Assembly: GCF_052049575.1 (NCBI RefSeq)
Contig: NZ_JBNGZQ010000001.1
Coordinates: forward strand, 40,209 to 104,208
Length of the DNA: 64,000 bases
Source of the DNA: Candidatus Pelagibacter sp.
GTDB taxonomy: Bacteria > Pseudomonadota > Alphaproteobacteria > Pelagibacterales > Pelagibacteraceae
Direction: 5' to 3'
In this document: positions 11,412 to 58,209 of the stretch, piece after piece
Numbering within the stretch: the stretch's first letter is position 1
Layout of the letters: the number at the start of each line of letters is the position of its first letter
Position numbers and translations under genes: made by a program
Notes under the pieces: model-generated
What the model saw: only the letters and a program-made list of their open reading frames with translations
Told to the model about the DNA's origin: nothing
Database searches by the model: none

Positions 11412-12536
11412 ATGGAAAAATTACTATTTAGAAAACTAATCGCAGACATTTCATTTAGAGCTCTGGCTATAGCTTTTACAATAGGTTTAATTGTATGGAT
11501 TATTCAAGCAGTAAATTATCTAGATTTTGTTATAGACGATGGTCATAATTTCAAAATTTATTTTCTATACAATTTATACAATTTTCCTAAGATAATTCAT
11601 AGAATTTTACCATTTGTGTTTGCTATCTCCATCTTTTTTGAATTAATTAAATATGAAAAAAATAATGAGCTACTAATTTTTTGGACTAATGGAGTTTCAA
11701 AACAGAAATTTATAAAAAATCTAGTCAGTTTCACTCTAATCATAATGTTTATTCAAGTTTTAATTGGAAGTTTTATTTCTCCAAATAATCAATTTAAAGC
11801 AAGACTTATTCTCAAAAATTCAAATATGGATTTTTTACCTAATCTAATCAAACAAGGAAAGTTTATAGATACTATCTCTGGATTAACAATTTTTATAAAT
11901 CATAAAACAGATAATAATTCTTTTAAAAATATTTATATTCAAGAGGGTGAATTCGATGATTTTAAAGAAAATGATAGTCAAATAATTTATGCTAAAGAAG
12001 GTTTTTTAATAAATGAAGATAAAAAACTTTTTAGATTATTGAATGGAAAAATAATTAGTAACAATAATAATAAATTGATAAGCTTTACATTTGATAAGAT
12101 AGATTATGATTTATCAAAATTTTCGTCTAGATCAATTAAAAGACCAAAAATTCAAGAGATATCATCTATTAAATTAATTAAATGTTCTATAAGTTTGATG
12201 TCAGGAAAAAAATATATAGATGATTTATTTAGTTGTGAAATGAATAAATTTAAAAATTTTAATCAAGAATTATACAAAAGGTTTATTAAACCATTTTACT
12301 TACCAATTCTTACACTGGTATGTTGTTTTTTATTAACATTTTCAAAAGAGCAACATAATTACATATTAAAAACTATCAAGATTTTTATTTATGTTTTTTT
12401 AATTTTAGTCGTGTCTGAAATTTTCATGAGATACATTCAGGGTTCTTTAATATACTTAATCTTGTTTTTAGGTATACCTATTTTATTCTTTTTATTGCTT
12501 TATAATTTTCTTATAAAGAAGGTCAATAATGCTTAG
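11412..12536 (+). CDS. lptF: LPS export ABC transporter permease LptF
   Basis: 3 N-terminal TM helices, periplasmic beta region (G.F..TISGLTIFI), 3 C-terminal TM helices; order lptF-lptG-lptD. Confidence 0.85.
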   Translation: MEKLLFRKLIADISFRALAIAFTIGLIVWIIQAVNYLDFVIDDGHNFKIYFLYNLYNFPKIIHRILPFVFAISIFFELIKYEKNNELLIFWTNGVSKQKFIKNLVSFTLIIMFIQVLIGSFISPNNQFKARLILKNSNMDFLPNLIKQGKFIDTISGLTIFINHKTDNNSFKNIYIQEGEFDDFKENDSQIIYAKEGFLINEDKKLFRLLNGKIISNNNNKLISFTFDKIDYDLSKFSSRSIKRPKIQEISSIKLIKCSISLMSGKKYIDDLFSCEMNKFKNFNQELYKRFIKPFYLPILTLVCCFLLTFSKEQHNYILKTIKIFIYVFLILVVSEIFMRYIQGSLIYLILFLGIPILFFLLLYNFLIKKVNNA

Positions 12537-46809: not shown

Positions 46810-47526
46810 ATGCGAAAAGAGTATAAGATTATAATTTCATCTTCATCCCAAAATTTTTTTTTGAGTTTCTACTTACTTTTAAAATATTTCATTAGTAAGA
46901 AGTTAAACAGAAAAAAAATTAAAAAAGGAAAGCTTTCAAAAGAATATAAAGAATTTATCCAAAAAAATTTACAAATTGGTGAAGATTGGTTTACACATAA
47001 TATAAATAATTTGGATTTGATCTTTAAAAAAAAACAACTTTATAACAAAGAATTATCAGTGCTAGAAATTGGAAGTTATGAGGGGAATTCGTCAGTATTT
47101 TTTTTAAAATATTTTCCAAAAATTAAATTAACATGTGTCGATACTTTTGAGGGATCAATTGAGCAAGATAATCAAAATTTTGATAAAGTATTTGAAAATT
47201 TTAAATTTAATACTAAAAATTACAAAGATCGGGTTGAAGTTTTTAGATTAAAATCTAAAGAATTTTTTAAAGATACCAATAATTCTAATTTTGACTTAAT
47301 TTATATAGATGGCTCACATTACGCTAAAGATGTTTTTGAAGATGCAACAAATTCCTTCAAAGTTCTTAATAAAAATGGTTATATTATTTTGGATGATTTT
47401 CTGTGGGATTTTTATGAAAATATAAATGATAATCCAATAGGTGGGATTAAACTATTTATTAAAAAAAACTTTTTTAAGTTAAAAATAATCTCAATTGGAT
47501 ACCAGATTATTATTCAGAAAATATAA
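46810..47526 (+). CDS. Class I SAM-dependent methyltransferase (Methyltransf_24-like)
   Basis: VLEIGSYEG.S, LTCVDTF.GS, FDLIYIDGSH, G.IILDDF.W. Confidence 0.82.
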   Translation: MRKEYKIIISSSSQNFFLSFYLLLKYFISKKLNRKKIKKGKLSKEYKEFIQKNLQIGEDWFTHNINNLDLIFKKKQLYNKELSVLEIGSYEGNSSVFFLKYFPKIKLTCVDTFEGSIEQDNQNFDKVFENFKFNTKNYKDRVEVFRLKSKEFFKDTNNSNFDLIYIDGSHYAKDVFEDATNSFKVLNKNGYIILDDFLWDFYENINDNPIGGIKLFIKKNFFKLKIISIGYQIIIQKI

Positions 47527-47568: not shown

Positions 47569-48672
47569 TTATAACACGTAAGGCTCTGGTCTTGCTTTTG
47601 CACCTAATACTCTTTCTACTGCCATATTTGAAATATCAATCGATTGATAAGAGCCTGTTGTAATTAGCTCTGTTAAAGCTCTTCCAATTCCTGGTGCTTG
47701 CATTAATCCTCTTCCAGTAAAACCAGTTGCTAAGTATACGTTTTCAAATTTTGGATGTTTTCCTACTACAGCATTATTATCTAATCTATTACAATCATAA
47801 TAACCTGCCCAACCACCAGTTAATTTCAATTCTTCAAATGCTGGGATTCTTTTAGCTAAAGCAGGCCAAACTAATTCCTCAAAATCGTCCCAGGCTGGTT
47901 CGAGATCTGTAGCATCAAAAACTGATTTTGGTGAACCAGCTAAATACTCTTTACCTTCAGGTCTCCAATAAACTCCTGTTGTTAAATCTCCTGTTAATGG
48001 CATTTCAGGAATGTGTTTTGGACACTTAACTCTAAAAACTGTATGCTTTTGAGGCTCTACTGGAATATCCTCCAATAATTCCTTTGTCCAACATCCAGCA
48101 GCAGATACTATTGTTTTAGCATTTATTTCCGATAAAGATTTAACTTCTCCTTTGATAAATTCTGCTCCTTGCTCTATAGCTTTACTTTTTAATGCTGTAT
48201 GAAAAAGAAAAGGATCTATCCATCCTTCACTTTTATTATCAGTAAATGTTGCGGTTTCTATTCCTTCTTTATTTATATAAGGAAAAAACTTATCTAACTC
48301 AGAACCTTTGATATTCTTTGTTCCAGCGTCACATGCTTTATGATTTTCGAGAGCCCTATATTGTTCCTCTGCATGTTCTGGGCCAAACATTAATAGATAT
48401 CCATTTGGTACCATGCTTGCAGTAGGATTAGGATTTTTTTCCGTTTTGAGCAACTCTGGTATTTGAAAAATAAATTCTCTTGCAAATTTACCAAGTAAAA
48501 TATTTTCCGTTTGAAAAAATTGTCTTCTAAAACCGCCAAGAGATAACGGAAAGGAAGCTGATTTATAGGTTGGGTCTCTCTCAATTACTTTAACTTTTCT
48601 TCCCTCTTTAGATAGGAAATAAGCAGTTGCTGCACCAATTATTCCCCCACCAACTATAACAACATCATCCAT
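47569..48672 (-). CDS. FAD-dependent oxidoreductase, DAO / sarcosine oxidase beta / FOXRED1-like
   Basis: DVVIVGGGIIG, IERDPTY..AS..LS.GG.R.QF...ENI, EGWIDP, WAGYYDCN..DNNAVVG.HP, TGFTGRGLMQAPGIGR. Confidence 0.88.
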   Translation of the reverse strand: MDDVVIVGGGIIGAATAYFLSKEGRKVKVIERDPTYKSASFPLSLGGFRRQFFQTENILLGKFAREFIFQIPELLKTEKNPNPTASMVPNGYLLMFGPEHAEEQYRALENHKACDAGTKNIKGSELDKFFPYINKEGIETATFTDNKSEGWIDPFLFHTALKSKAIEQGAEFIKGEVKSLSEINAKTIVSAAGCWTKELLEDIPVEPQKHTVFRVKCPKHIPEMPLTGDLTTGVYWRPEGKEYLAGSPKSVFDATDLEPAWDDFEELVWPALAKRIPAFEELKLTGGWAGYYDCNRLDNNAVVGKHPKFENVYLATGFTGRGLMQAPGIGRALTELITTGSYQSIDISNMAVERVLGAKARPEPYVL

Positions 48673-49140
48673 TTAATTTAGCACCATTAAGTTATAGTTA
48701 AGAAATAAAGCATAGAAACACCAAAGTAAATATGGAATCATTAAGTAATAACTTACAAAATTGACACGTTTAAATCTAATAATTAGAATAATTATCAAAG
48801 TTATCAAAATAACTAAAACGACTAATGCAAAAAATATTTGATGTAATCCAAAAAAAACAATACTCCAAGTTGCATTAAAAACTATATGTATAAAATAAAT
48901 ATAAATTGTATTTATATCTCTTTTTTTACTGTGCCAAAAGAACCAAATAGCTAATGTCATCATTATGTAAAGTGTCGTCCAAACTGGAGCAAATATCCAA
49001 TCTGGTGGATTATAATTTGATTTAATAAGCCCAGAGTACCAAGGCTCTTTGAGGCTTATAGAGACTAAACCACCGGTAAATGATGCAGAAAAAGTGACAA
49101 TTGAAAAAAGAATTAATGAATAAAATTTATTTTTTAGCAT
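48673..49140 (-). CDS. tspO: Tryptophan-rich sensory protein TspO/MBR
   Basis: WY..L.K..YNPPDWIFAPVWT.LY, N..WS..FFG, L..PYL.W...A..LN. Start placed at ATG 49140 (ORF track: 49155). Confidence 0.93.
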   Translation of the reverse strand: MLKNKFYSLILFSIVTFSASFTGGLVSISLKEPWYSGLIKSNYNPPDWIFAPVWTTLYIMMTLAIWFFWHSKKRDINTIYIYFIHIVFNATWSIVFFGLHQIFFALVVLVILITLIIILIIRFKRVNFVSYYLMIPYLLWCFYALFLNYNLMVLN

Positions 49141-49164
49141 ATTAGTATTATACATCTTTATAAT
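49141..49164. promoter_or_regulatory. Divergent promoter region tspO / SDR; candidate sigma70 -10 for a leaderless tspO mRNA
   Basis: Minus-strand TATAAT (49152-49147) lies at -12 to -7 from the ATG at 49140. The region is AT-rich, so chance matches are possible. Confidence 0.4.
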
Positions 49165-49926
49165 ATGAATAAAAAAACTATTTGGATCACAGGTGGTAGC
49201 ACAGGAATTGGTAAAGCTTTAGCAATAAAATTTGCTAAAGAAGGTTGGAATGTTGCAATATCTGCAAGACGTGAAAATTTACTAAAAGAAACTTGTGGAG
49301 AACATGAAAATATTAGTTCTTTTCCACTGGACGTAACTGATAAAAATAAATGTAAAGAAGTTTTTCAAAATATAGTAGATACTTTTAAGAATGTAGATAT
49401 TTGTTTTTTCTCAACTGGTACATGGGATCCAAAGAAAGAAAAAGATATTGATGTTGAACAAATTGAAAATGTATTTAAAGTAAATTTTTTTGGAACATTA
49501 AATAGTGTTAAAGCTGTAGAGAAATATTTTAAAGATAAAAAAAGTGGAACTATCACAATAGTCTCCTCTATTGCGGGTTACCGAGGATTACCTAATTCAA
49601 CTGGATATGGGCCATCTAAATCAGCTTTAAATAATTTAGCTGAAAGCTTATATTTTGATTTTGGTAGATCAAATGTTCGAGTATGTCTTGTCTCACCAGG
49701 TTTTATTAAAACACCAATGACTGACAAAAATGATTTTAAAATGCCTTTCTTAAAAACTTCTGAATATGCTGCAGAAAAAATTTATGATGGTTTAGTAAAC
49801 AAAAATTCTTTTGAAATTCATTTTCCAAAATCTTTAACAATTATATTGAAAATTTTAAGTTTCTTACCAAACAAAATTTATTTTGGATTAATTGGAAAAC
49901 TTACAAAATACCAAAAAAAAAATTAA
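49165..49926 (+). CDS. Short-chain dehydrogenase/reductase
   Basis: ITGGSTGIG, ISARR, VNFFG, SSIAGYRGLP, YGPSK (YxxxK), PGFIKTPMT. Confidence 0.93.
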   Translation: MNKKTIWITGGSTGIGKALAIKFAKEGWNVAISARRENLLKETCGEHENISSFPLDVTDKNKCKEVFQNIVDTFKNVDICFFSTGTWDPKKEKDIDVEQIENVFKVNFFGTLNSVKAVEKYFKDKKSGTITIVSSIAGYRGLPNSTGYGPSKSALNNLAESLYFDFGRSNVRVCLVSPGFIKTPMTDKNDFKMPFLKTSEYAAEKIYDGLVNKNSFEIHFPKSLTIILKILSFLPNKIYFGLIGKLTKYQKKN

Positions 49927-50471
49927 TCTTTTACAAAAACTACGGTTAATTCTGCTACTTTGAATCCAAATTTAGTCATTGTAGCCCTATTAATTGCTAC
50001 ACGTTCATCTTGTTTGAAAATCCAATCATCAAAAGTTATTTTCATTTCTTTACCTTTGACCGGAACTAACAAAACATATTCAAATTTAAAAGCTGGACCA
50101 TATGAATATCCTTTCGCTTTACCAACAACATCTCCTGCAGTACCCTCATAATTATTTTCATCGATTTTGGTGATCTGCCATTGTCTAGTTTGAATTTCCC
50201 CATCATCCCAATTAAATTTTTCGTCGAGTATCAATTGTTTACCGTCCCATTTTCCATTTAAATTTGCAGAAAATTGTCTTGTGACTTTTCCAGATCTATT
50301 TTGAAGCACCCCCCAAGCTTTTACATTGCCTGACAAATAATTTTCAATAATCAATCTAGGTTCTTTATTTTTAAAATCTTCTGGTTTCATAGCGCTGTTT
50401 TTTGAGCAGTTTGTAATTAAGAAAAGAAAAATTATCAATAAAATTGATTTGCTATTTTTAAGTTTAATCAT
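49923..50471 (-). CDS. DUF3833-family lipoprotein
   Basis: Lipobox-like LITNC, YLSG.VKAWG....RSG.VTR.F, L.EKF.WDDG, YEGTAGDVVG.A.G, FDDWIF...E..AINRA.MTKFG. Confidence 0.88.
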   Translation of the reverse strand: MIKLKNSKSILLIIFLFLITNCSKNSAMKPEDFKNKEPRLIIENYLSGNVKAWGVLQNRSGKVTRQFSANLNGKWDGKQLILDEKFNWDDGEIQTRQWQITKIDENNYEGTAGDVVGKAKGYSYGPAFKFEYVLLVPVKGKEMKITFDDWIFKQDERVAINRATMTKFGFKVAELTVVFVKD

Positions 50472-50487
50472 TCGTTTCCTTTAAAGA

Positions 50488-51666
50488 TCATTTATTTTGA
50501 AGTGAAAATTGAATTAAATCTATATTTTTTGATTTAAATCCTGCCTCACAATAAGAAAGGTAAAATTCCCACATTCTTTTAAAAGTCAAATCAAAACCTT
50601 GTTTCTTAATTAAATTCCACTTCTTATTAAATTCATTTCTCCATATTGCTAATGTATCAGAATAATGATCTGCATAAGAGTCATATGACTTTATAGCTAG
50701 ACCATTTTCTGAAACATATTTATTAATAATATTCTTACTTGGTAAAAATCCTCCAGGAAAAATATATTTTTGGATGAAATCTGTCTTATTTTTATATCGG
50801 TCAAACATATTATCATCTATTGTGATAGCCTGAATAGCAGCTCTCCCATTATCTGATAGATTATCTTTAATAGTTTTAAAATAACTTTCTAGGTAATTTT
50901 GTCCAACAGCTTCTATCATTTCTATTGAAGCTATTGAATTATATTTATTTTTTAAATCTCTATAATCTTTAATTTCAATGTTTACTTTTTCATTTAGACC
51001 ACATTCATGAATTCTTTTTTTAGCATATTCAAATTGTTTTTTTGATATAGTAATGCAATCTAATTTAACATCATATTTTTTTCCTAAATATTCTGCAAAA
51101 CCACCCCAACCACATCCAATCTCTAAAATTTTGTCACCATTATTTGGTTTAATTAAATCAATTAATTTTTGATATTTATTATTTTGTGCGTTAGACAAAT
51201 CTTTATTCTTCTCATCAAATATTGCACTTGAATAAGTTAAAGTTTTATCAAGCCATAGTGCAAAAAACTCATTGCCTAAGTCATAATGTTTTGAAATATT
51301 ATCCTTACTTCGACCTCTGGTGTTCTTAATAAATAAATTTCTTGCATAGTTGATTACTGGAAAATCTAATAGACCAGAAAATTTATAAATTATTTTGATA
51401 TTTCTTGCAGTAATTTCAATCAGGTTTGAAAGATTATCAGTTTCAAATTCATCCTTCATATAAGATTCTGCAAAACCAACACTTCCTCCTTTTATTAGGT
51501 TGAAAGTAAAATTTGGTTTTTTAATTTTTAAAACTGATTTTAAAGGACTGCTAGGGTTTCCAATTTTTAATAATCCACCGTTATATTTTGTGATCTCTAA
51601 ATACCCATACTTTATATCTTTTAAAATTTTGAAGACAATTTGATCTGAAAAATTATATAAGCTCAT
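50488..51666 (-). CDS. cfa: Cfa-family SAM-dependent fatty-acyl methyltransferase (cyclopropane synthase or UfaM-like)
   Basis: NISKHYDLGNEFF.LWLD.TLTYSSA, LEIGCGWGG, SIEMIEAVG, FIQKYIFPGG.LPS, RMWEFYL.YCEAGF. The exact chemistry cannot be decided from motifs. Confidence 0.85.
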   Translation of the reverse strand: MSLYNFSDQIVFKILKDIKYGYLEITKYNGGLLKIGNPSSPLKSVLKIKKPNFTFNLIKGGSVGFAESYMKDEFETDNLSNLIEITARNIKIIYKFSGLLDFPVINYARNLFIKNTRGRSKDNISKHYDLGNEFFALWLDKTLTYSSAIFDEKNKDLSNAQNNKYQKLIDLIKPNNGDKILEIGCGWGGFAEYLGKKYDVKLDCITISKKQFEYAKKRIHECGLNEKVNIEIKDYRDLKNKYNSIASIEMIEAVGQNYLESYFKTIKDNLSDNGRAAIQAITIDDNMFDRYKNKTDFIQKYIFPGGFLPSKNIINKYVSENGLAIKSYDSYADHYSDTLAIWRNEFNKKWNLIKKQGFDLTFKRMWEFYLSYCEAGFKSKNIDLIQFSLQNK

Positions 51667-52427
51667 TAATTCTCAAAAGTAATATTGTTTTTAATTTTAA
51701 GTTTTTTTTTTACAAATTTTATTCCTTTAAGCCATAATTTAAAGGCTTCAAAATGTATCGCCGATATAACTTTAAATGTCATTAACGGGTGTTTTATGTA
51801 TGATTTAAGTAATTCTGTGGTTGTAAATTCTGCCCTTTTTCCTTCTTGTGATGCAAATAAGATTTTTTCATTTTGCTGATATTGATCAATTATGACTGAA
51901 ATCTTTTCAGAGGGTTTTAAGATTCTAAAAAAATAATTACAATTCATTTCAATAAACGGAGACACATGAAATTTTTTGAAACAGTTGTGTTGTAACATGT
52001 TATTTTTCTCTACTCTAAAAATATAAGTATGTTGTTCTCCAAAAGTATTTTTTACCTCATATAATATCGAAATTAAATTTTCATTATGATCATAAACAAA
52101 GAAAACACTAAGAGGATTAAACACATAACCAAAAATTCTTGGATAGCACAAAAGCTTTATTCTTATATCTTTTGAAAAAATATTATTTTCCTCTAAATTT
52201 TTTTTCACCCATTCAGTCAAAGATGAGCCATCTCTTTGACCATGATCTTTGTCAAAAAAACTAATCAGATTAAACCGATTATATGAGAAAAAACTTATAT
52301 TTTTATTCAGATTATTTAGATCAGATAAATCGATTAATAATGAAAATACACTGTACTTAAAATAATGTTTTTTTGGTTTAAATCTTTTGTGTATTACCGT
52401 TCCATTGTAAATTGAGCTAGTCATCAA
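51666..52427 (-). CDS. DUF1365-family protein (UfaO-like)
   Basis: H.RF.P..H.F.Y, PRIFGYVFNPLSV, YEVKNTFGEQH.Y, K.FHVSPF, IH.EAFKLWLKG. Confidence 0.92.
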   Translation of the reverse strand: MMTSSIYNGTVIHKRFKPKKHYFKYSVFSLLIDLSDLNNLNKNISFFSYNRFNLISFFDKDHGQRDGSSLTEWVKKNLEENNIFSKDIRIKLLCYPRIFGYVFNPLSVFFVYDHNENLISILYEVKNTFGEQHTYIFRVEKNNMLQHNCFKKFHVSPFIEMNCNYFFRILKPSEKISVIIDQYQQNEKILFASQEGKRAEFTTTELLKSYIKHPLMTFKVISAIHFEAFKLWLKGIKFVKKKLKIKNNITFEN

Positions 52428-53658
52428 GGTTTTTTAGCATTTCAATTGATGATTTTATTCCATCTTCATGAAAACCGTAACCAAAATAACTACCGCAAAA
52501 AAGAATATTTCTTTTATTTTGCAAATTTTTAAGCTTAATTTGATAATCTAAAGCAGATTGATCAAAATATGGGTGGGTGAATTTAACTTTTTTTAAAATT
52601 TTTGTTTCATCAATATCGAGGTATGGATTTAGTGTAAGAAATATATTTTTCTCACATTCTAAATTTTGAAGTAAATTTAACCAATAAGTGATTGAATTTT
52701 TTTCAATTTCATTTTTCTGCATAGATGAGTTCCAAGCACACCAGGCATTCTTGTTTTTTGGCATAACTGTCTCATCTGTGTGTATATAAGCCAAATTTTC
52801 TTTATAACTAAAATTTGACAAAACTTCTTTCTCTTGATCAGTTGGATTTTCAATCATTGATAATGCCTCGTCCGCATGTGTTGCAATAATTACTTTGTCG
52901 TAATCAAAAAATTCATTTTTTCCACCATAATACAAATCAATACCATTTGATTTACTAATGATTTTATTGACTTTATAATTCTTAAAATATTCTCCACTAA
53001 TTTTTGATAGAATAGTTTTTACATATGACCTGCTTCTATTTGAAACTGTGTACCACTGTGGTCTATTTTTAAGTTTAAATAATCCATGATTTTGAAAAAA
53101 TTTTAAAAAGAATTTTAAAGGCATCTTATTCGCAGCATATGGCGGCATCGACCAGATTGCTGACACCATAGGTATTAAATGATAATTGATAAATTCTTTT
53201 GAAAGATTATTTTTAATCAAATAATCACCCAATGTGATGTTCTCATTTATATTATCTAGCTTGTCGGATTTTTTATAAAATTTTATAATATCAAAAAACA
53301 TTTTTAAAAATTTAATATTAAATAAATTCATCTTGTTGGAAAAAATTCCATTTAATCCTTTTCCACAGTATTCGAAGTTTGTATCCTTTACTGATACAGA
53401 GAAAGACATGTTGCTTTTTTCAATTTCAATTTTATTTTCATTAAAAAAATTAATTAAATTTGGATAAGTTTTAAAGTTAAATACAATGAAGCCTATATCT
53501 ACCGATACTTTTTTGGTTCCAACTATTAGATCAATTGTGTGTGAATGACCACCAAAGTGATCTTCTTTTTCAAATAGATCAACATGATTATTTTTTGAAA
53601 GATAATAAGCAGCACTTAATCCTGAAATGCCTGAACCAACTACAGCAATTTTCATCAA
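52417..53658 (-). CDS. FAD/NAD(P)-binding oxidoreductase, amine-oxidase-like (UfaD-like)
   Basis: KIAVVGSGISGL, GGHSHT, VDIGFIVFN..TYPN, S.MSFS, SAIWS, FF.NHGL, IATHADEAL, TYWLN.LQ, CGSYFGYGFHEDG. Confidence 0.9.
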   Translation of the reverse strand: MMKIAVVGSGISGLSAAYYLSKNNHVDLFEKEDHFGGHSHTIDLIVGTKKVSVDIGFIVFNFKTYPNLINFFNENKIEIEKSNMSFSVSVKDTNFEYCGKGLNGIFSNKMNLFNIKFLKMFFDIIKFYKKSDKLDNINENITLGDYLIKNNLSKEFINYHLIPMVSAIWSMPPYAANKMPLKFFLKFFQNHGLFKLKNRPQWYTVSNRSRSYVKTILSKISGEYFKNYKVNKIISKSNGIDLYYGGKNEFFDYDKVIIATHADEALSMIENPTDQEKEVLSNFSYKENLAYIHTDETVMPKNKNAWCAWNSSMQKNEIEKNSITYWLNLLQNLECEKNIFLTLNPYLDIDETKILKKVKFTHPYFDQSALDYQIKLKNLQNKRNILFCGSYFGYGFHEDGIKSSIEMLKNLDD

Positions 53659-53661
53659 TAA

Positions 53662-56532
53662 TTATGCTGCATCTTCTTTAAATTCATCCATGCTTGGACA
53701 TGTACAGAAAATATTTTTATCACCATAGACATTGTCTACTCTTGCAACTGGTGGCCAAAATTTATTTACTTTTAAAAATTTAGCTGGATAAGCAGCCTCT
53801 TCTCTAGAATACTTGTGTGTCCAATTATCAGAGGCTAACTCAGTATCAGTATGAGGAGCGTTTTTAATTGGATTATCAACTTTATCAAATTTACCAGTTT
53901 TAATTAGATCAATTTCTTGTTTAATCTTAATTAAGGTGTCACAAAACCTATCTAGCTCTGACAGGTTCTCACTTTCTGTAGGTTCAATCATCATTGTTCC
54001 AGCCACAGGCCAAGACATTGTTGGTGCATGAAAACCAAAATCAATTAATCTTTTTGCGATATCTTCCTCAGTGACTCCCGTTTCTGATTTGATTGACCTA
54101 ATATCAATAATACATTCGTGAGCAACATTACCATTTGAACCTTTGTATAAGATTGGATAATGATCTTTCAGTCTTTCAGCAATATAATTTGCATTTAGTA
54201 TCGCAACTTTAGAAGCTAGTTTTAATCCCTCTGATCCCATCATTTTTATATACATCCAAGAAATTGATAAAATACTTGAGCTTCCCCATGGAGCAGCAGA
54301 CACAGCTCCAATTCCAGTCGCTGGACCACAATCTTTAACAACTGGATGATTTGGCAAATAAACTTGTAGATGTTTTTTACATGCAATAGGTCCCATACCT
54401 GGTCCACCCCCACCATGAGGGATACAAAATGTTTTATGTAAATTTATATGACAAACATCCGGACCAAAATTTCCAGGTTTGGCTATACCAACTAGTGCAT
54501 TCAAATTTGCCCCATCCATATACACTTGCCCACCATGTTTATGAATTAGTTCACATATATCCATGATTTTTTCCTCAAACACTCCATGAGTAGATGGATA
54601 TGTGACCATCAAAGCTCCTAAATTTTCTGAATGAAGCTCCGCTTTTTTCTTTAAATCATCAAAATCAACATTACCTTCTTTATCACAATTAACTACAACC
54701 ACTTTCATTCCAACCATTTGTGCACTAGCAGGATTGGTTCCATGTGCAGAGCTTGGTATTAAACATATGTTTCTATTTTTTTCACCCCTATCTAAATGAT
54801 ATTTTCTAATTACCATTAGTCCTGCATATTCGCCTTGAGCACCTGCATTTGGTTGAAGTGAAACTCCCGAAAAACCAGTAATTGATCTTAACCAGTTTTT
54901 TAAATCGGTAAATAATGTCCTATATCCCTCCATCTGCTCAATAGGTACAAATGGATGGGGCTCAGCTAATTCTCTCCATGAAATAGGTATCATTTCTGCG
55001 GTGGCATTTAATTTCATCGTGCAAGAGCCTAACGCTATCATGGTTCTGTTAAGAGCTATATCCTTGTCCTCTAATTTTTTAAGGTATCTAAGCATTTCTG
55101 TCTCAGAACGGTATGAATTAAAAACAGGATGTTCTAAATATTTAGAAGTTCTCAATAAACTTTTTGGTAAATTGGGTAAACTTACTGTTGGATCCTCTTT
55201 TTTTATAGACTCTGCTGCATTAAAAATTTTTAACAGTTGATTTACTCTATAAACATTTTTTTTCTCATCAAAAGAAACAGCAAGCATTTCAGAGTTTACT
55301 TTTCGAATATTAACTTTTTGATTTAAAGCATTTTTATAAATTTGATCAGTCTTTTCTTTAGTAATAATTGTAACAGTATCAAAAAAGTAATCAGAATATA
55401 TTTCATATCCAGATTGTTTTATTTTATCAGCAAAATTTTTTGCTAATTGAGAAACTCTCTCAGAAATTTTATTAATTCCATCTGGACCATGATAAATGGC
55501 ATAAGCTGCTGATACTATAGCTAACAACGCTTGAGCTGTACAAATGTTACTTGTAGCTTTGTCTCTTCTAATATGCTGCTCTCTAGTCTGTAGTGACAAT
55601 CTATAAGCCTTGTTTCCATGTCTATCTACTGAAACACCAACTATTCTACCTGGCATAGATCTTTTGTATTCATCTTTTGTTGCAAAAAATGCAGCATGTG
55701 GTCCGCCATAACCCATTGGAATACCAAATCTTTGTGAACTACCAACTGCAATATCAGCCCCAAGTTCTCTCGGCGTCTTAAGTTTAGCAAGCGCAAGAAG
55801 ATCGCAAGCTAAAATAGCTTTACCATTTTTTTTATGAATTTTACTTATTGCCTCGCTTGGATCTTTAATATCTCCTAAGGTTCCAGGATACTGTAATATT
55901 CCACAAACAATATCCTCTTTTAATTGTTCTAAAACTTTGTCTTCATTTCCAACAAGAACTTTGAGACCCATAGGCTCTGCTCTAGTTCTAATAACCTCAA
56001 CAGTTTGGGGGTGGCAATTTTCTGAGACAAAAACTAAATTACTATCACTTTTATCAAGTCTATAACTTAAACCCATAGCTTCTGCTGCAGCTGTACCCTC
56101 ATCCAATAAAGATGCATTTGCAATATCCATTCCTGTAAAATCAACAATCATTTGCTGAAAGTTTAAAAGCATCTCCAGTCTTCCTTGAGCCACTTCTGGT
56201 TGATAAGGCGTGTATGATGTGTACCAGCCTGGATTTTCCAATATATTTCTTAAAATTACGTAAGGTGTGTATGTACCATAATAGCCCATGCCAATAAAAT
56301 TTGAGTAAATTTCATTTTTTTTAGAAATTGCTTTTAATTTTCTTAATGCTTCGTATTCTGAATTAGACTCACCAATATTAAGTTCACCCTTAAACTGTAT
56401 TTTTTCTGGAACTGTATTATCAATTAAATCATCTAATGATTTATAATTTAATTTTTTTAACATTTTAGATTGATCATCTTCAGATGGACCAATGTGTCTT
56501 TTTATAAAATCTTTTTCGGAATTATGTAACAT
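53662..56532 (-). CDS. gcvP: Glycine dehydrogenase (decarboxylating), single-chain P protein
   Basis: FIKRHIGP, YTPYQPEVAQGRLE, NASLLDEGTAAAEA, QRFGIPMGYGGPHA, LGSCTMKLNA, PLP-lysine motif HINLHKTF. Confidence 0.98.
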   Translation of the reverse strand: MLHNSEKDFIKRHIGPSEDDQSKMLKKLNYKSLDDLIDNTVPEKIQFKGELNIGESNSEYEALRKLKAISKKNEIYSNFIGMGYYGTYTPYVILRNILENPGWYTSYTPYQPEVAQGRLEMLLNFQQMIVDFTGMDIANASLLDEGTAAAEAMGLSYRLDKSDSNLVFVSENCHPQTVEVIRTRAEPMGLKVLVGNEDKVLEQLKEDIVCGILQYPGTLGDIKDPSEAISKIHKKNGKAILACDLLALAKLKTPRELGADIAVGSSQRFGIPMGYGGPHAAFFATKDEYKRSMPGRIVGVSVDRHGNKAYRLSLQTREQHIRRDKATSNICTAQALLAIVSAAYAIYHGPDGINKISERVSQLAKNFADKIKQSGYEIYSDYFFDTVTIITKEKTDQIYKNALNQKVNIRKVNSEMLAVSFDEKKNVYRVNQLLKIFNAAESIKKEDPTVSLPNLPKSLLRTSKYLEHPVFNSYRSETEMLRYLKKLEDKDIALNRTMIALGSCTMKLNATAEMIPISWRELAEPHPFVPIEQMEGYRTLFTDLKNWLRSITGFSGVSLQPNAGAQGEYAGLMVIRKYHLDRGEKNRNICLIPSSAHGTNPASAQMVGMKVVVVNCDKEGNVDFDDLKKKAELHSENLGALMVTYPSTHGVFEEKIMDICELIHKHGGQVYMDGANLNALVGIAKPGNFGPDVCHINLHKTFCIPHGGGGPGMGPIACKKHLQVYLPNHPVVKDCGPATGIGAVSAAPWGSSSILSISWMYIKMMGSEGLKLASKVAILNANYIAERLKDHYPILYKGSNGNVAHECIIDIRSIKSETGVTEEDIAKRLIDFGFHAPTMSWPVAGTMMIEPTESENLSELDRFCDTLIKIKQEIDLIKTGKFDKVDNPIKNAPHTDTELASDNWTHKYSREEAAYPAKFLKVNKFWPPVARVDNVYGDKNIFCTCPSMDEFKEDAA

Positions 56533-58029: not shown

Positions 58030-58178
58030 CCCATCTGTATATTTGCCTGAGAGTTTTGCTCCTTCGGCGAGAATTAAATCTCTTTCCAGAGTTAATATGT
58101 TACGGTCCTTTTTGCCTGAGAGATTCCCGGGTAGTTGCTCCTTCGGCGCTACGATAATCTGTAGTCTCTCCCGTAAAG
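58030..58178 (-). ncRNA. Tandem glycine riboswitch in the gcvT leader
   Basis: The minus strand carries two aptamers, each with GGA(G/A)AGA...CGCCGAAGGAGCAA...CTCTCAGGCAA. Aptamer 1 spans ~58178-58099 and is closed by TTACGG/CCGTAA; aptamer 2 spans ~58092-58030. It ends ~15 nt before the gcvT ATG. Confidence 0.95.
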
Positions 58179-58180
58179 CA

Positions 58181-58209
58181 ATAGTCCTATAAGTAACTTA
58201 AAATGTCAA
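58181..58209 (-). promoter_or_regulatory. Candidate sigma70 promoter for the riboswitch-gcvTHP transcript
   Basis: Minus-strand TTGACA (58209-58204, overlapping the DMT stop codon), 17-nt spacer, then GACTAT. The -35 is perfect and the -10 is weak. Confidence 0.35.

Follow-up and report, generated by a model that had tools for sequence, protein, structure and literature searches.

A probable furan-fatty-acid (ufa) gene cluster downstream of gcvP in Candidatus Pelagibacter sp.

Described ufa systems and the Pelagibacter locus

In Rhodobacter sphaeroides, furan fatty acids (FuFAs) are made by UfaM (RSP2144), which methylates cis-vaccenate in phospholipids, UfaD (RSP1091), a phytoene-desaturase-like NAD/FAD protein which yields a conjugated methyl-diene, and UfaO (RSP1090), a DUF1365 protein which inserts O2-derived oxygen to give 9M5-FuFA, whereas RSP1089, RSP1088 and RSP1087 are dispensable for the synthesis (PMC7380195). 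The genes RSP1091-1087 are divergent from rpoE-chrR, and RSP2143-2144 encode a photolyase and a Cfa homologue (PMC3546557). The genes ufaD-ufaO-ufaM are consecutive in R. palustris CGA009 (RPA2571-2570-2569), in which FufM (RPA0924), a divergent paralogue from the CMAS family of methyltransferases that is 26% identical to UfaM, makes a dimethyl furan acid (PMC7380195). The marine Halomonas sp. YLGW01 also carries consecutive ufaD/ufaO/ufaM genes and a separate cfa gene; when expressed in Escherichia coli, its ufaM produced 11-methyloctadec-12-enoate and its cfa produced cy17:0 and cy19:0 (PMC12089945). Here we describe a five-gene cluster located downstream of gcvP in a 64,000-nucleotide stretch (the window; all positions refer to it unless stated otherwise) of the SAR11 bacterium Candidatus Pelagibacter sp. 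(assembly GCF_052049575.1, contig NZ_JBNGZQ010000001.1, positions 40,209 to 104,208). The cluster is probably the FuFA pathway of this organism, acting on the acyl chains of membrane phospholipids.

The host genome (1.19 Mb in two contigs) is 99.8% complete, and the G+C content of the region of the window is about 26-37%. Near-identical proteins number in the thousands across the ENA, JGI and Tara assemblies; this, the size and base composition of the genome, its two sigma factors and the glycine riboswitch before gcvT are all in keeping with SAR11/Pelagibacterales. No paper linking SAR11 with furan fatty acids was found in the literature searched, in agreement with the initial annotation, which knew of no such demonstration; one published paper counts these genes of HTCC1062 simply as cyclopropanation genes.

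The cluster genes as orthologues of ufaM, ufaD and ufaO

The initial annotation had read the locus as a ufa-like cluster composed of genes for an FAD oxidoreductase, a DUF1365 protein, a Cfa-family methyltransferase and a DUF3833 lipoprotein on the minus strand, with a convergent gene for a short-chain dehydrogenase (SDR). We confirmed both the coordinates and the domains (Table 1), and the ufa-like reading is supported by the domains, reciprocal best hits, gene order, methyltransferase phylogeny and conserved residues. The comparison of best hits and the phylogeny that had been proposed at that stage were carried out with Roseovarius and other Rhodobacteraceae references and E. coli Cfa, and they speak for orthology with UfaM, UfaD and UfaO. 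Thus, sequence comparison supports the assignment of the cluster genes as orthologues of these three, accompanied by the usual DUF3833 and SDR companions. According to the list of open reading frames (ORFs) and the Pfam and NCBIfam scans, all frames of the cluster are intact. The ufaD/ufaO and ufaO/ufaM junctions are overlapping or abutting, the DUF3833 gene starts 16 nt after ufaM and is preceded by the ribosome-binding site AAGGAAA, and the convergent SDR and DUF3833 genes overlap by 4 nt. The gap of 3 nt after gcvP that had been reported holds for a TTG start of the ufaD-like gene; the distance from the gcvP stop codon TAA to the likelier ATG start is 6 nt.

The Rhodobacteraceae reference loci came from three genomes, none of them R. 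sphaeroides, which were found by searching for exact matches to a published primer. Among the published R. sphaeroides and R. palustris primers compared with the fetched loci, this single one matched exactly, and only in those three Rhodobacteraceae loci, while the others had 1-3 mismatches. A protein search with the Roseovarius UfaM returned Roseobacter-group proteins only and none from R. sphaeroides. As a stand-in for UfaM we used the Rhodobacteraceae CMAS gene located directly downstream of a photolyase gene, i.e. in the RSP2143-2144 arrangement, and took it as the synteny orthologue. When Roseovarius UfaD, UfaO, DUF3833, SDR and UfaM were searched against the host genome by tblastn, the best or only match of each was found inside the window cluster.

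The in-cluster CMAS protein matches PF02353 over its full length (E = 4e-83), contains the S-adenosylmethionine (SAM) motif ILEIGCGWGG, as expected of a UfaM, and matches the PDB chains of Cfa (E = 3e-56) as well as solved chains of mycolic-acid methyltransferases. It is 37-40% identical to the photolyase-adjacent Rhodobacteraceae genes and 27-29% identical to other Rhodobacteraceae paralogues, and it is the best match in the genome of Roseovarius UfaM (40% identity). In maximum-likelihood trees, a 100/100 split placed it on the UfaM side together with nine in-cluster genes of the order, 21 in-operon genes of the class and the 3 photolyase-adjacent Rhodobacteraceae genes, and separated it from E. 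coli Cfa, the second CMAS paralogue of the genome and the other Rhodobacteraceae paralogues. It thus groups with UfaM, as anchored by synteny with RSP2143-2144 and not by the sequence of RSP2144, and not with Cfa. The bicarbonate ligands of E. coli Cfa are C139, E239, H266, I268 and Y317 (PMC3132707, citing Courtois and Ploux 2005). The in-cluster protein keeps E239, I268 and Y317 and has S139, A240 and Q266 in place of C139, H240 and H266, so that the E. coli-type ligand set is incomplete. Nearly the whole UfaM side shares A240 and Q266 and has S, or else A/G, in position 139, although class locus L043 keeps C139. The protein also failed to reach the cut-off of any NCBIfam Cfa equivalog (254 bits on the Brucella-type Cfa model). 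Its predicted product is 11-methyl-12-trans-octadecenoate instead of a cyclopropane acid.

The ufaD-like protein contains the PF13450 and PF01593 domains and the motif GSGISG. It was the sole match in the genome of Roseovarius UfaD (34% identity over the full length) and retains 73 of the 92 positions whose conservation across 32 alphaproteobacterial homologues is 90% or higher. Its closest solved structure is that of the amine oxidase LkcE (E = 2e-28). An NAD/FAD-binding protein resembling phytoene desaturases and amine oxidases, encoded beside ufaO, is what UfaD should be. The ufaO-like protein matches PF07103 along its full length (E = 8e-78), its gene is the only DUF1365 gene in the genome, and its identity to Roseovarius UfaO is 29%. 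The protein retains every one of the 36 positions whose conservation reaches 90% or more among 32 homologues outside the order; the domain, these residues and the linkage with ufaD are those expected of a UfaO. DUF1365 had no sequence match in the PDB. The AlphaFold model of UfaO, which is of moderate quality (pLDDT 68, pTM 0.72), consists of antiparallel beta structure and a long C-terminal helix; a fold search with this model gave no match at E <= 0.001 and only a weak resemblance to calycin and fatty-acid-binding protein (FABP)-like barrels. By analogy, the protein is a putative enzyme of the O2 insertion which closes the furan ring.

The cluster is widely conserved. DUF1365 was found in 252 of the 301 genomes of the order, in 188 of the 214 high-quality ones and in all 10 genera sampled, and the genomes of the order that carry it measure about 1-1.5 Mb. 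The block gcvT-gcvH-gcvP-ufaD-ufaO-ufaM-DUF3833, followed by SDR and TspO-DAO, is kept as a whole in the genus of the window and in one other. In three other genera of the family the arrangement is photolyase-ufaD-ufaO-ufaM (L077-L079; genomes G022, G190 and G004), with the photolyase gene directly upstream on the same strand, and in the second family of the order it is ufaD-ufaO-ufaM. The triad is thus kept even where its surroundings differ, and ufaO always occurs with ufaD and ufaM in the loci of the order. The ufaD gene lies directly upstream of DUF1365 in 29/29 loci of the class and 9/9 loci of the order. In 21 of the 29 alphaproteobacterial loci, ufaD-ufaO is followed by a CMAS gene with a UfaM-type best reference; this is the commonest layout, and that of the window is therefore canonical, being the one proven in R. 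palustris. The pathway genes are indeed present in this lineage, as had been pointed out, but this is less exceptional than was implied, since 49 of the 91 alphaproteobacterial families sampled have DUF1365. The pathway itself is known and widespread in Alphaproteobacteria; what is unusual here is confined to the host and the lack of the regulators. The roles given to UfaM, UfaD and UfaO on the Rhodobacter model, as well as the DUF3833 and SDR companions, stood; in contrast, UfaM lies outside the R. sphaeroides operon, and the window shares its layout with R. palustris and Halomonas (PMC7380195; PMC12089945).

In the proposed chemistry, the UfaM-type CMAS protein would convert cis-vaccenate with SAM into the trans methyl-branched monoene 11Me-12t-18:1, which the UfaD-type FAD enzyme would convert into the conjugated 11-methyl-10,12-diene with O2 as the electron acceptor. 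The UfaO-type DUF1365 protein would then insert one O atom from O2 and close the ring, and the resulting monomethyl FuFA of the 9M5 type would serve in the membrane as a quencher of radicals and singlet oxygen. The literature supplies the chemistry of these steps, and we infer that the SAR11-like proteins carry out the same reactions. The product would act as a direct scavenger; the genome encodes no σE-ChrR signalling partner. The genome contains FabA scoring above the curated cut-off, so cis-unsaturated acyl chains are available as the substrate.

The suggestion that the organism makes furan or other modified fatty acids rather than plain cyclopropane lipids was borne out in its furan part, but "rather than" is too strong. 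A second CMAS gene lies outside the window (Table 1), and its product is 44% identical to other Rhodobacteraceae paralogues versus 32-34% to UfaM-type proteins. It keeps the complete bicarbonate site of E. coli Cfa, and its best family match is the Brucella-type cyclopropane synthase model (514 bits; cut-off 600). This paralogue, present in 47 of the 48 genomes of the genus of the window and absent in three genera that retain the ufa triad, probably makes ordinary cyclopropane acids in parallel with the ufa cluster. With this second Cfa-type gene and its full bicarbonate site in the genome, cyclopropane lipids and methyl/furan lipids are probably made side by side, neither kind replacing the other. 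A DHDPS-family gene lies upstream of the paralogue, and two ORFs of 399 and 97 aa lie directly downstream (G000:C1:568797-569996 and 570026-570319; L006:10797-11996 and 12026-12319), neither of which had a Pfam match.

Table 1. Features of the ufa-like locus, its neighbours and the second CMAS gene (window positions unless a contig is given)
Feature	Position	Strand	Remarks
ufaD-like gene, FAD-dependent fatty-acyl desaturase	52417-53658	-	413 aa; likely ATG start at 53655; NAD_binding_8 and Amino_oxidase
ufaO-like gene, DUF1365 protein	51666-52427	-	253 aa; likely ATG start at 52424; PF07103
ufaM-type gene, SAM-dependent fatty-acyl methyltransferase	50488-51666	-	392 aa; CMAS family, PF02353
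DUF3833 lipoprotein-like accessory gene (RSP1088 type)	49923-50471	-	PF12915
Convergent SDR gene, accessory (RSP1087 type)	49165-49926	+	adh_short
gcvP, upstream neighbour (context, not pathway)	53662-56532	-	TIGR00461, 1444 bits
Glycine riboswitch before gcvT-gcvH-gcvP (context)	58093-58183	-	RF00504, 65.8 bits, E = 2e-11
TspO/MBR tryptophan-rich sensory protein gene, adjoining SDR	48673-49155	-	
DAO-type FAD oxidoreductase gene, beyond SDR/TspO	47569-48672	-	weak ThiO-like matches below cut-off
Methyltransf_24-family class I methyltransferase gene, adjoining the DAO gene	46810-47526	+	238 aa
Cfa-type CMAS paralogue, outside the window	G000:C1:567580-568767		33% identical to in-cluster CMAS

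The DUF3833 protein (PF12915, E = 1e-60) has no significant sequence match in the PDB (one insignificant match, E = 0.66). Its N-terminus, MIKLKNSKSILLIIFLFLITNC, resembles a lipoprotein signal with a lipobox, although N at position -1 is atypical, and its identity to the DUF3833 protein of the Roseovarius operon is 31%. The gene is kept in all 10 genomes tested of the family of the window, being unlinked from ufa in three genera, and is absent in the second family of the order. The SDR protein matches adh_short (E = 5e-45) and is the best match in the genome of the Roseovarius operon SDR (38% identity versus at most 26% for other SDRs); an SDR gene adjoins ufaO or ufaM in 8 of the 29 alphaproteobacterial loci. 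DUF3833 and SDR are conserved accessory companions of the triad. In Roseovarius conchicola the genes are ordered ufaD - ufaO - MFS_2 transporter - DUF3833 - SDR, divergent from rpoE-chrR, and a second genome has the same order. RSP1089 was also considered as a Cfa homologue; this was rejected, as the relatives have a size-matched MFS_2 transporter at that place (L009:3260-4588 and L007:3173-4369), and by analogy the dispensable RSP1089 of R. sphaeroides is probably a transporter.

The block DAO-TspO, SDR and DUF3833-ufaM-ufaO-ufaD is kept in the genus of the window, and TspO-SDR is found in a second genus as well. TspO proteins are linked to porphyrin and photo-oxidative biology elsewhere, and the neighbourhood may therefore have functional meaning.

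Expression of the cluster and alternative readings

The sigma-70 family is represented in the genome by just two genes (frames of 615 and 302 aa). Neither an extracytoplasmic function (ECF) sigma factor nor a ChrR cupin was detected, and tblastn with Roseovarius RpoE, ChrR and the MFS transporter gave no match; the rpoE-chrR pair, which is typically divergent from the ufaD operon, is thus missing. The photolyase gene of this genome is away from the cluster (C2:415482-416885). The photolyase-ufa linkage in G022, G190 and G004 recreates the association of the σE regulon without any σE. No terminator-like site was found at the gcvP-ufaD junction; the nearest (53797-53782) falls within the terminal part of gcvP, about 120 nt upstream of the junction. 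The promoter scan revealed no recognisable promoter and fewer promoter-like sites than in shuffled controls. The gcvP-ufaD junction is kept in two genera; tiny spacers are the norm in such genomes, however. Read-through into the ufa genes from the riboswitch-controlled gcv operon is possible, if speculative. A more far-reaching proposal, to which we give limited credence, is that the FuFA pathway belongs to the core of this lineage as a membrane antioxidant system that runs constitutively and needs no regulator. Its genes would then, in the genus of the window, form the transcribed tail end of the glycine-riboswitch gcvT-gcvH-gcvP operon, which would tie a SAM-dependent lipid to the supply of glycine and one-carbon units. 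In a group this abundant, the pathway would amount to a major and hitherto unrecognised source of furan fatty acids in the ocean food web.

Several points weigh against the assignment of the cluster to the FuFA pathway. Inducing regulators of the Rhodobacter type are absent from the genome sequence, so that the cluster may or may not be expressed. The identities to the nearest lineages with experimental anchors are only 29-40%, and because the R. sphaeroides and R. palustris sequences were outside the comparison, the UfaM anchor consists of synteny orthologues in other Rhodobacteraceae. The approximately unbiased (AU) test with the CMAS proteins of the order forced to group with Cfa did not reject this constraint (p = 0.54); the test is uninformative here, since the constraint also holds when these proteins branch basally on the UfaM side, and it fits the clade of the order either inside or at the base of that side. 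The S139/Q266 signature marks a clade and would be no proof of the product, because cotton cyclopropane synthases, in which an FAD oxidase is fused to CMAS, have the same substitutions and yet produce cyclopropanes (PMC3132707). Finally, the lipid product is a prediction from sequence comparison.

These points bear most directly on the alternative that the cluster stops before the furan or makes another product, i.e. only a methyl-branched or conjugated-diene acid, a chain other than C19 or a cyclopropane/cyclopropene-type acid as in the plant fusions. The plant enzymes, the long and possibly basal branch of the CMAS clade of the order and the fact that the mechanism and reductant of UfaO have not been worked out even in the model organisms would all allow it. 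Nevertheless, UfaO retains every highly conserved position and always accompanies ufaD and ufaM in the order, the three bacterial UfaM-type enzymes tested (3/3) yield a methyl-monoene with no ring, and the separate Cfa-type gene already covers cyclopropanation, so we consider this alternative unlikely. Still less probable is that the second CMAS paralogue is a FufM-like furan methylase and that dimethyl furan acids of the 9D5 type are formed as in R. palustris. The dimethyl step is performed there by just such a divergent paralogue, the one in our genome is about 32-34% identical to the UfaM-type proteins, and the comparison set included no FufM reference. This paralogue, however, retains each of the four side-chain ligands with which E. 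coli Cfa binds bicarbonate, comes near to the cut-off of the Brucella-type model, sides with E. coli Cfa in the tree, opposite the UfaM side, and is missing in the three genera mentioned above.

The lack of an ECF sigma factor and ChrR, together with a promoter scan that fell below the shuffled controls, could also mean that the genes are left over from the alphaproteobacterial regulon for photo-oxidative stress, silent or in decay after the loss of their regulators and contributing nothing at present. This is very improbable in view of the intact ORFs, the retention in 252 of the 301 genomes of a strongly streamlined order including all ten sampled genera, the conserved residues kept in UfaO (36/36) and UfaD (73/92), and the conservation of junctions that resemble those of translationally coupled genes. 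A working FuFA pathway is thus the reading that we prefer.

Should these lipids be produced, a scavenger of singlet oxygen and radicals would be built into the membranes of the heterotrophs that are most abundant in sunlit ocean waters. This would bear on the light tolerance of proteorhodopsin-bearing cells, on the source of the furan fatty acids that build up along the marine food chain and on the interpretation of marine lipid biomarkers, as 11-methyl-18:1 and cy19:0 have an identical formula. A lineage without σE-ChrR would also be a natural test of direct protection versus signalling only. Annotations routinely call these genes "cyclopropane fatty acid synthase" or "unknown function", and their re-annotation is therefore warranted.

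Comparison with known systems

The closest counterpart in gene order, which was the basis of this comparison, is R. palustris, with which the window shares the three genes, their order, their location on one strand and a further gene after them. It differs in that R. palustris has FufM, whereas in the window the cluster adjoins gcvP and is faced by a convergent SDR gene. R. sphaeroides likewise has clustered homologues of UfaD, UfaO, DUF3833 and SDR, and the window methylase belongs to the clade of the photolyase-adjacent Rhodobacteraceae genes. In the Rhodobacteraceae, however, the third gene of the operon encodes an MFS transporter, UfaM is located elsewhere beside a photolyase, and the operon is divergent from rpoE-chrR, which the host genome lacks. 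Halomonas, compared by gene content and not by sequence, resembles the window genome in its consecutive ufa genes and second Cfa-type gene, but it is a gammaproteobacterium with a large genome.

The in-cluster CMAS protein is 33% identical to E. coli Cfa (PDB 6BQC) and agrees with it in fold, SAM motif and N-terminal lipid-binding domain. It is distinguished from it by the C139S, H240A and H266Q substitutions and by its position across the 100/100 split, and the Cfa-like protein of the genome is the paralogue outside the window. The plant cyclopropane synthases (Sterculia, cotton GhCPS) similarly pair a UfaD-like FAD domain with CMAS and have C139S/H266Q (PMC3132707), but they are single fused polypeptides that make a cyclopropane product, and the fusion has no DUF1365 domain.

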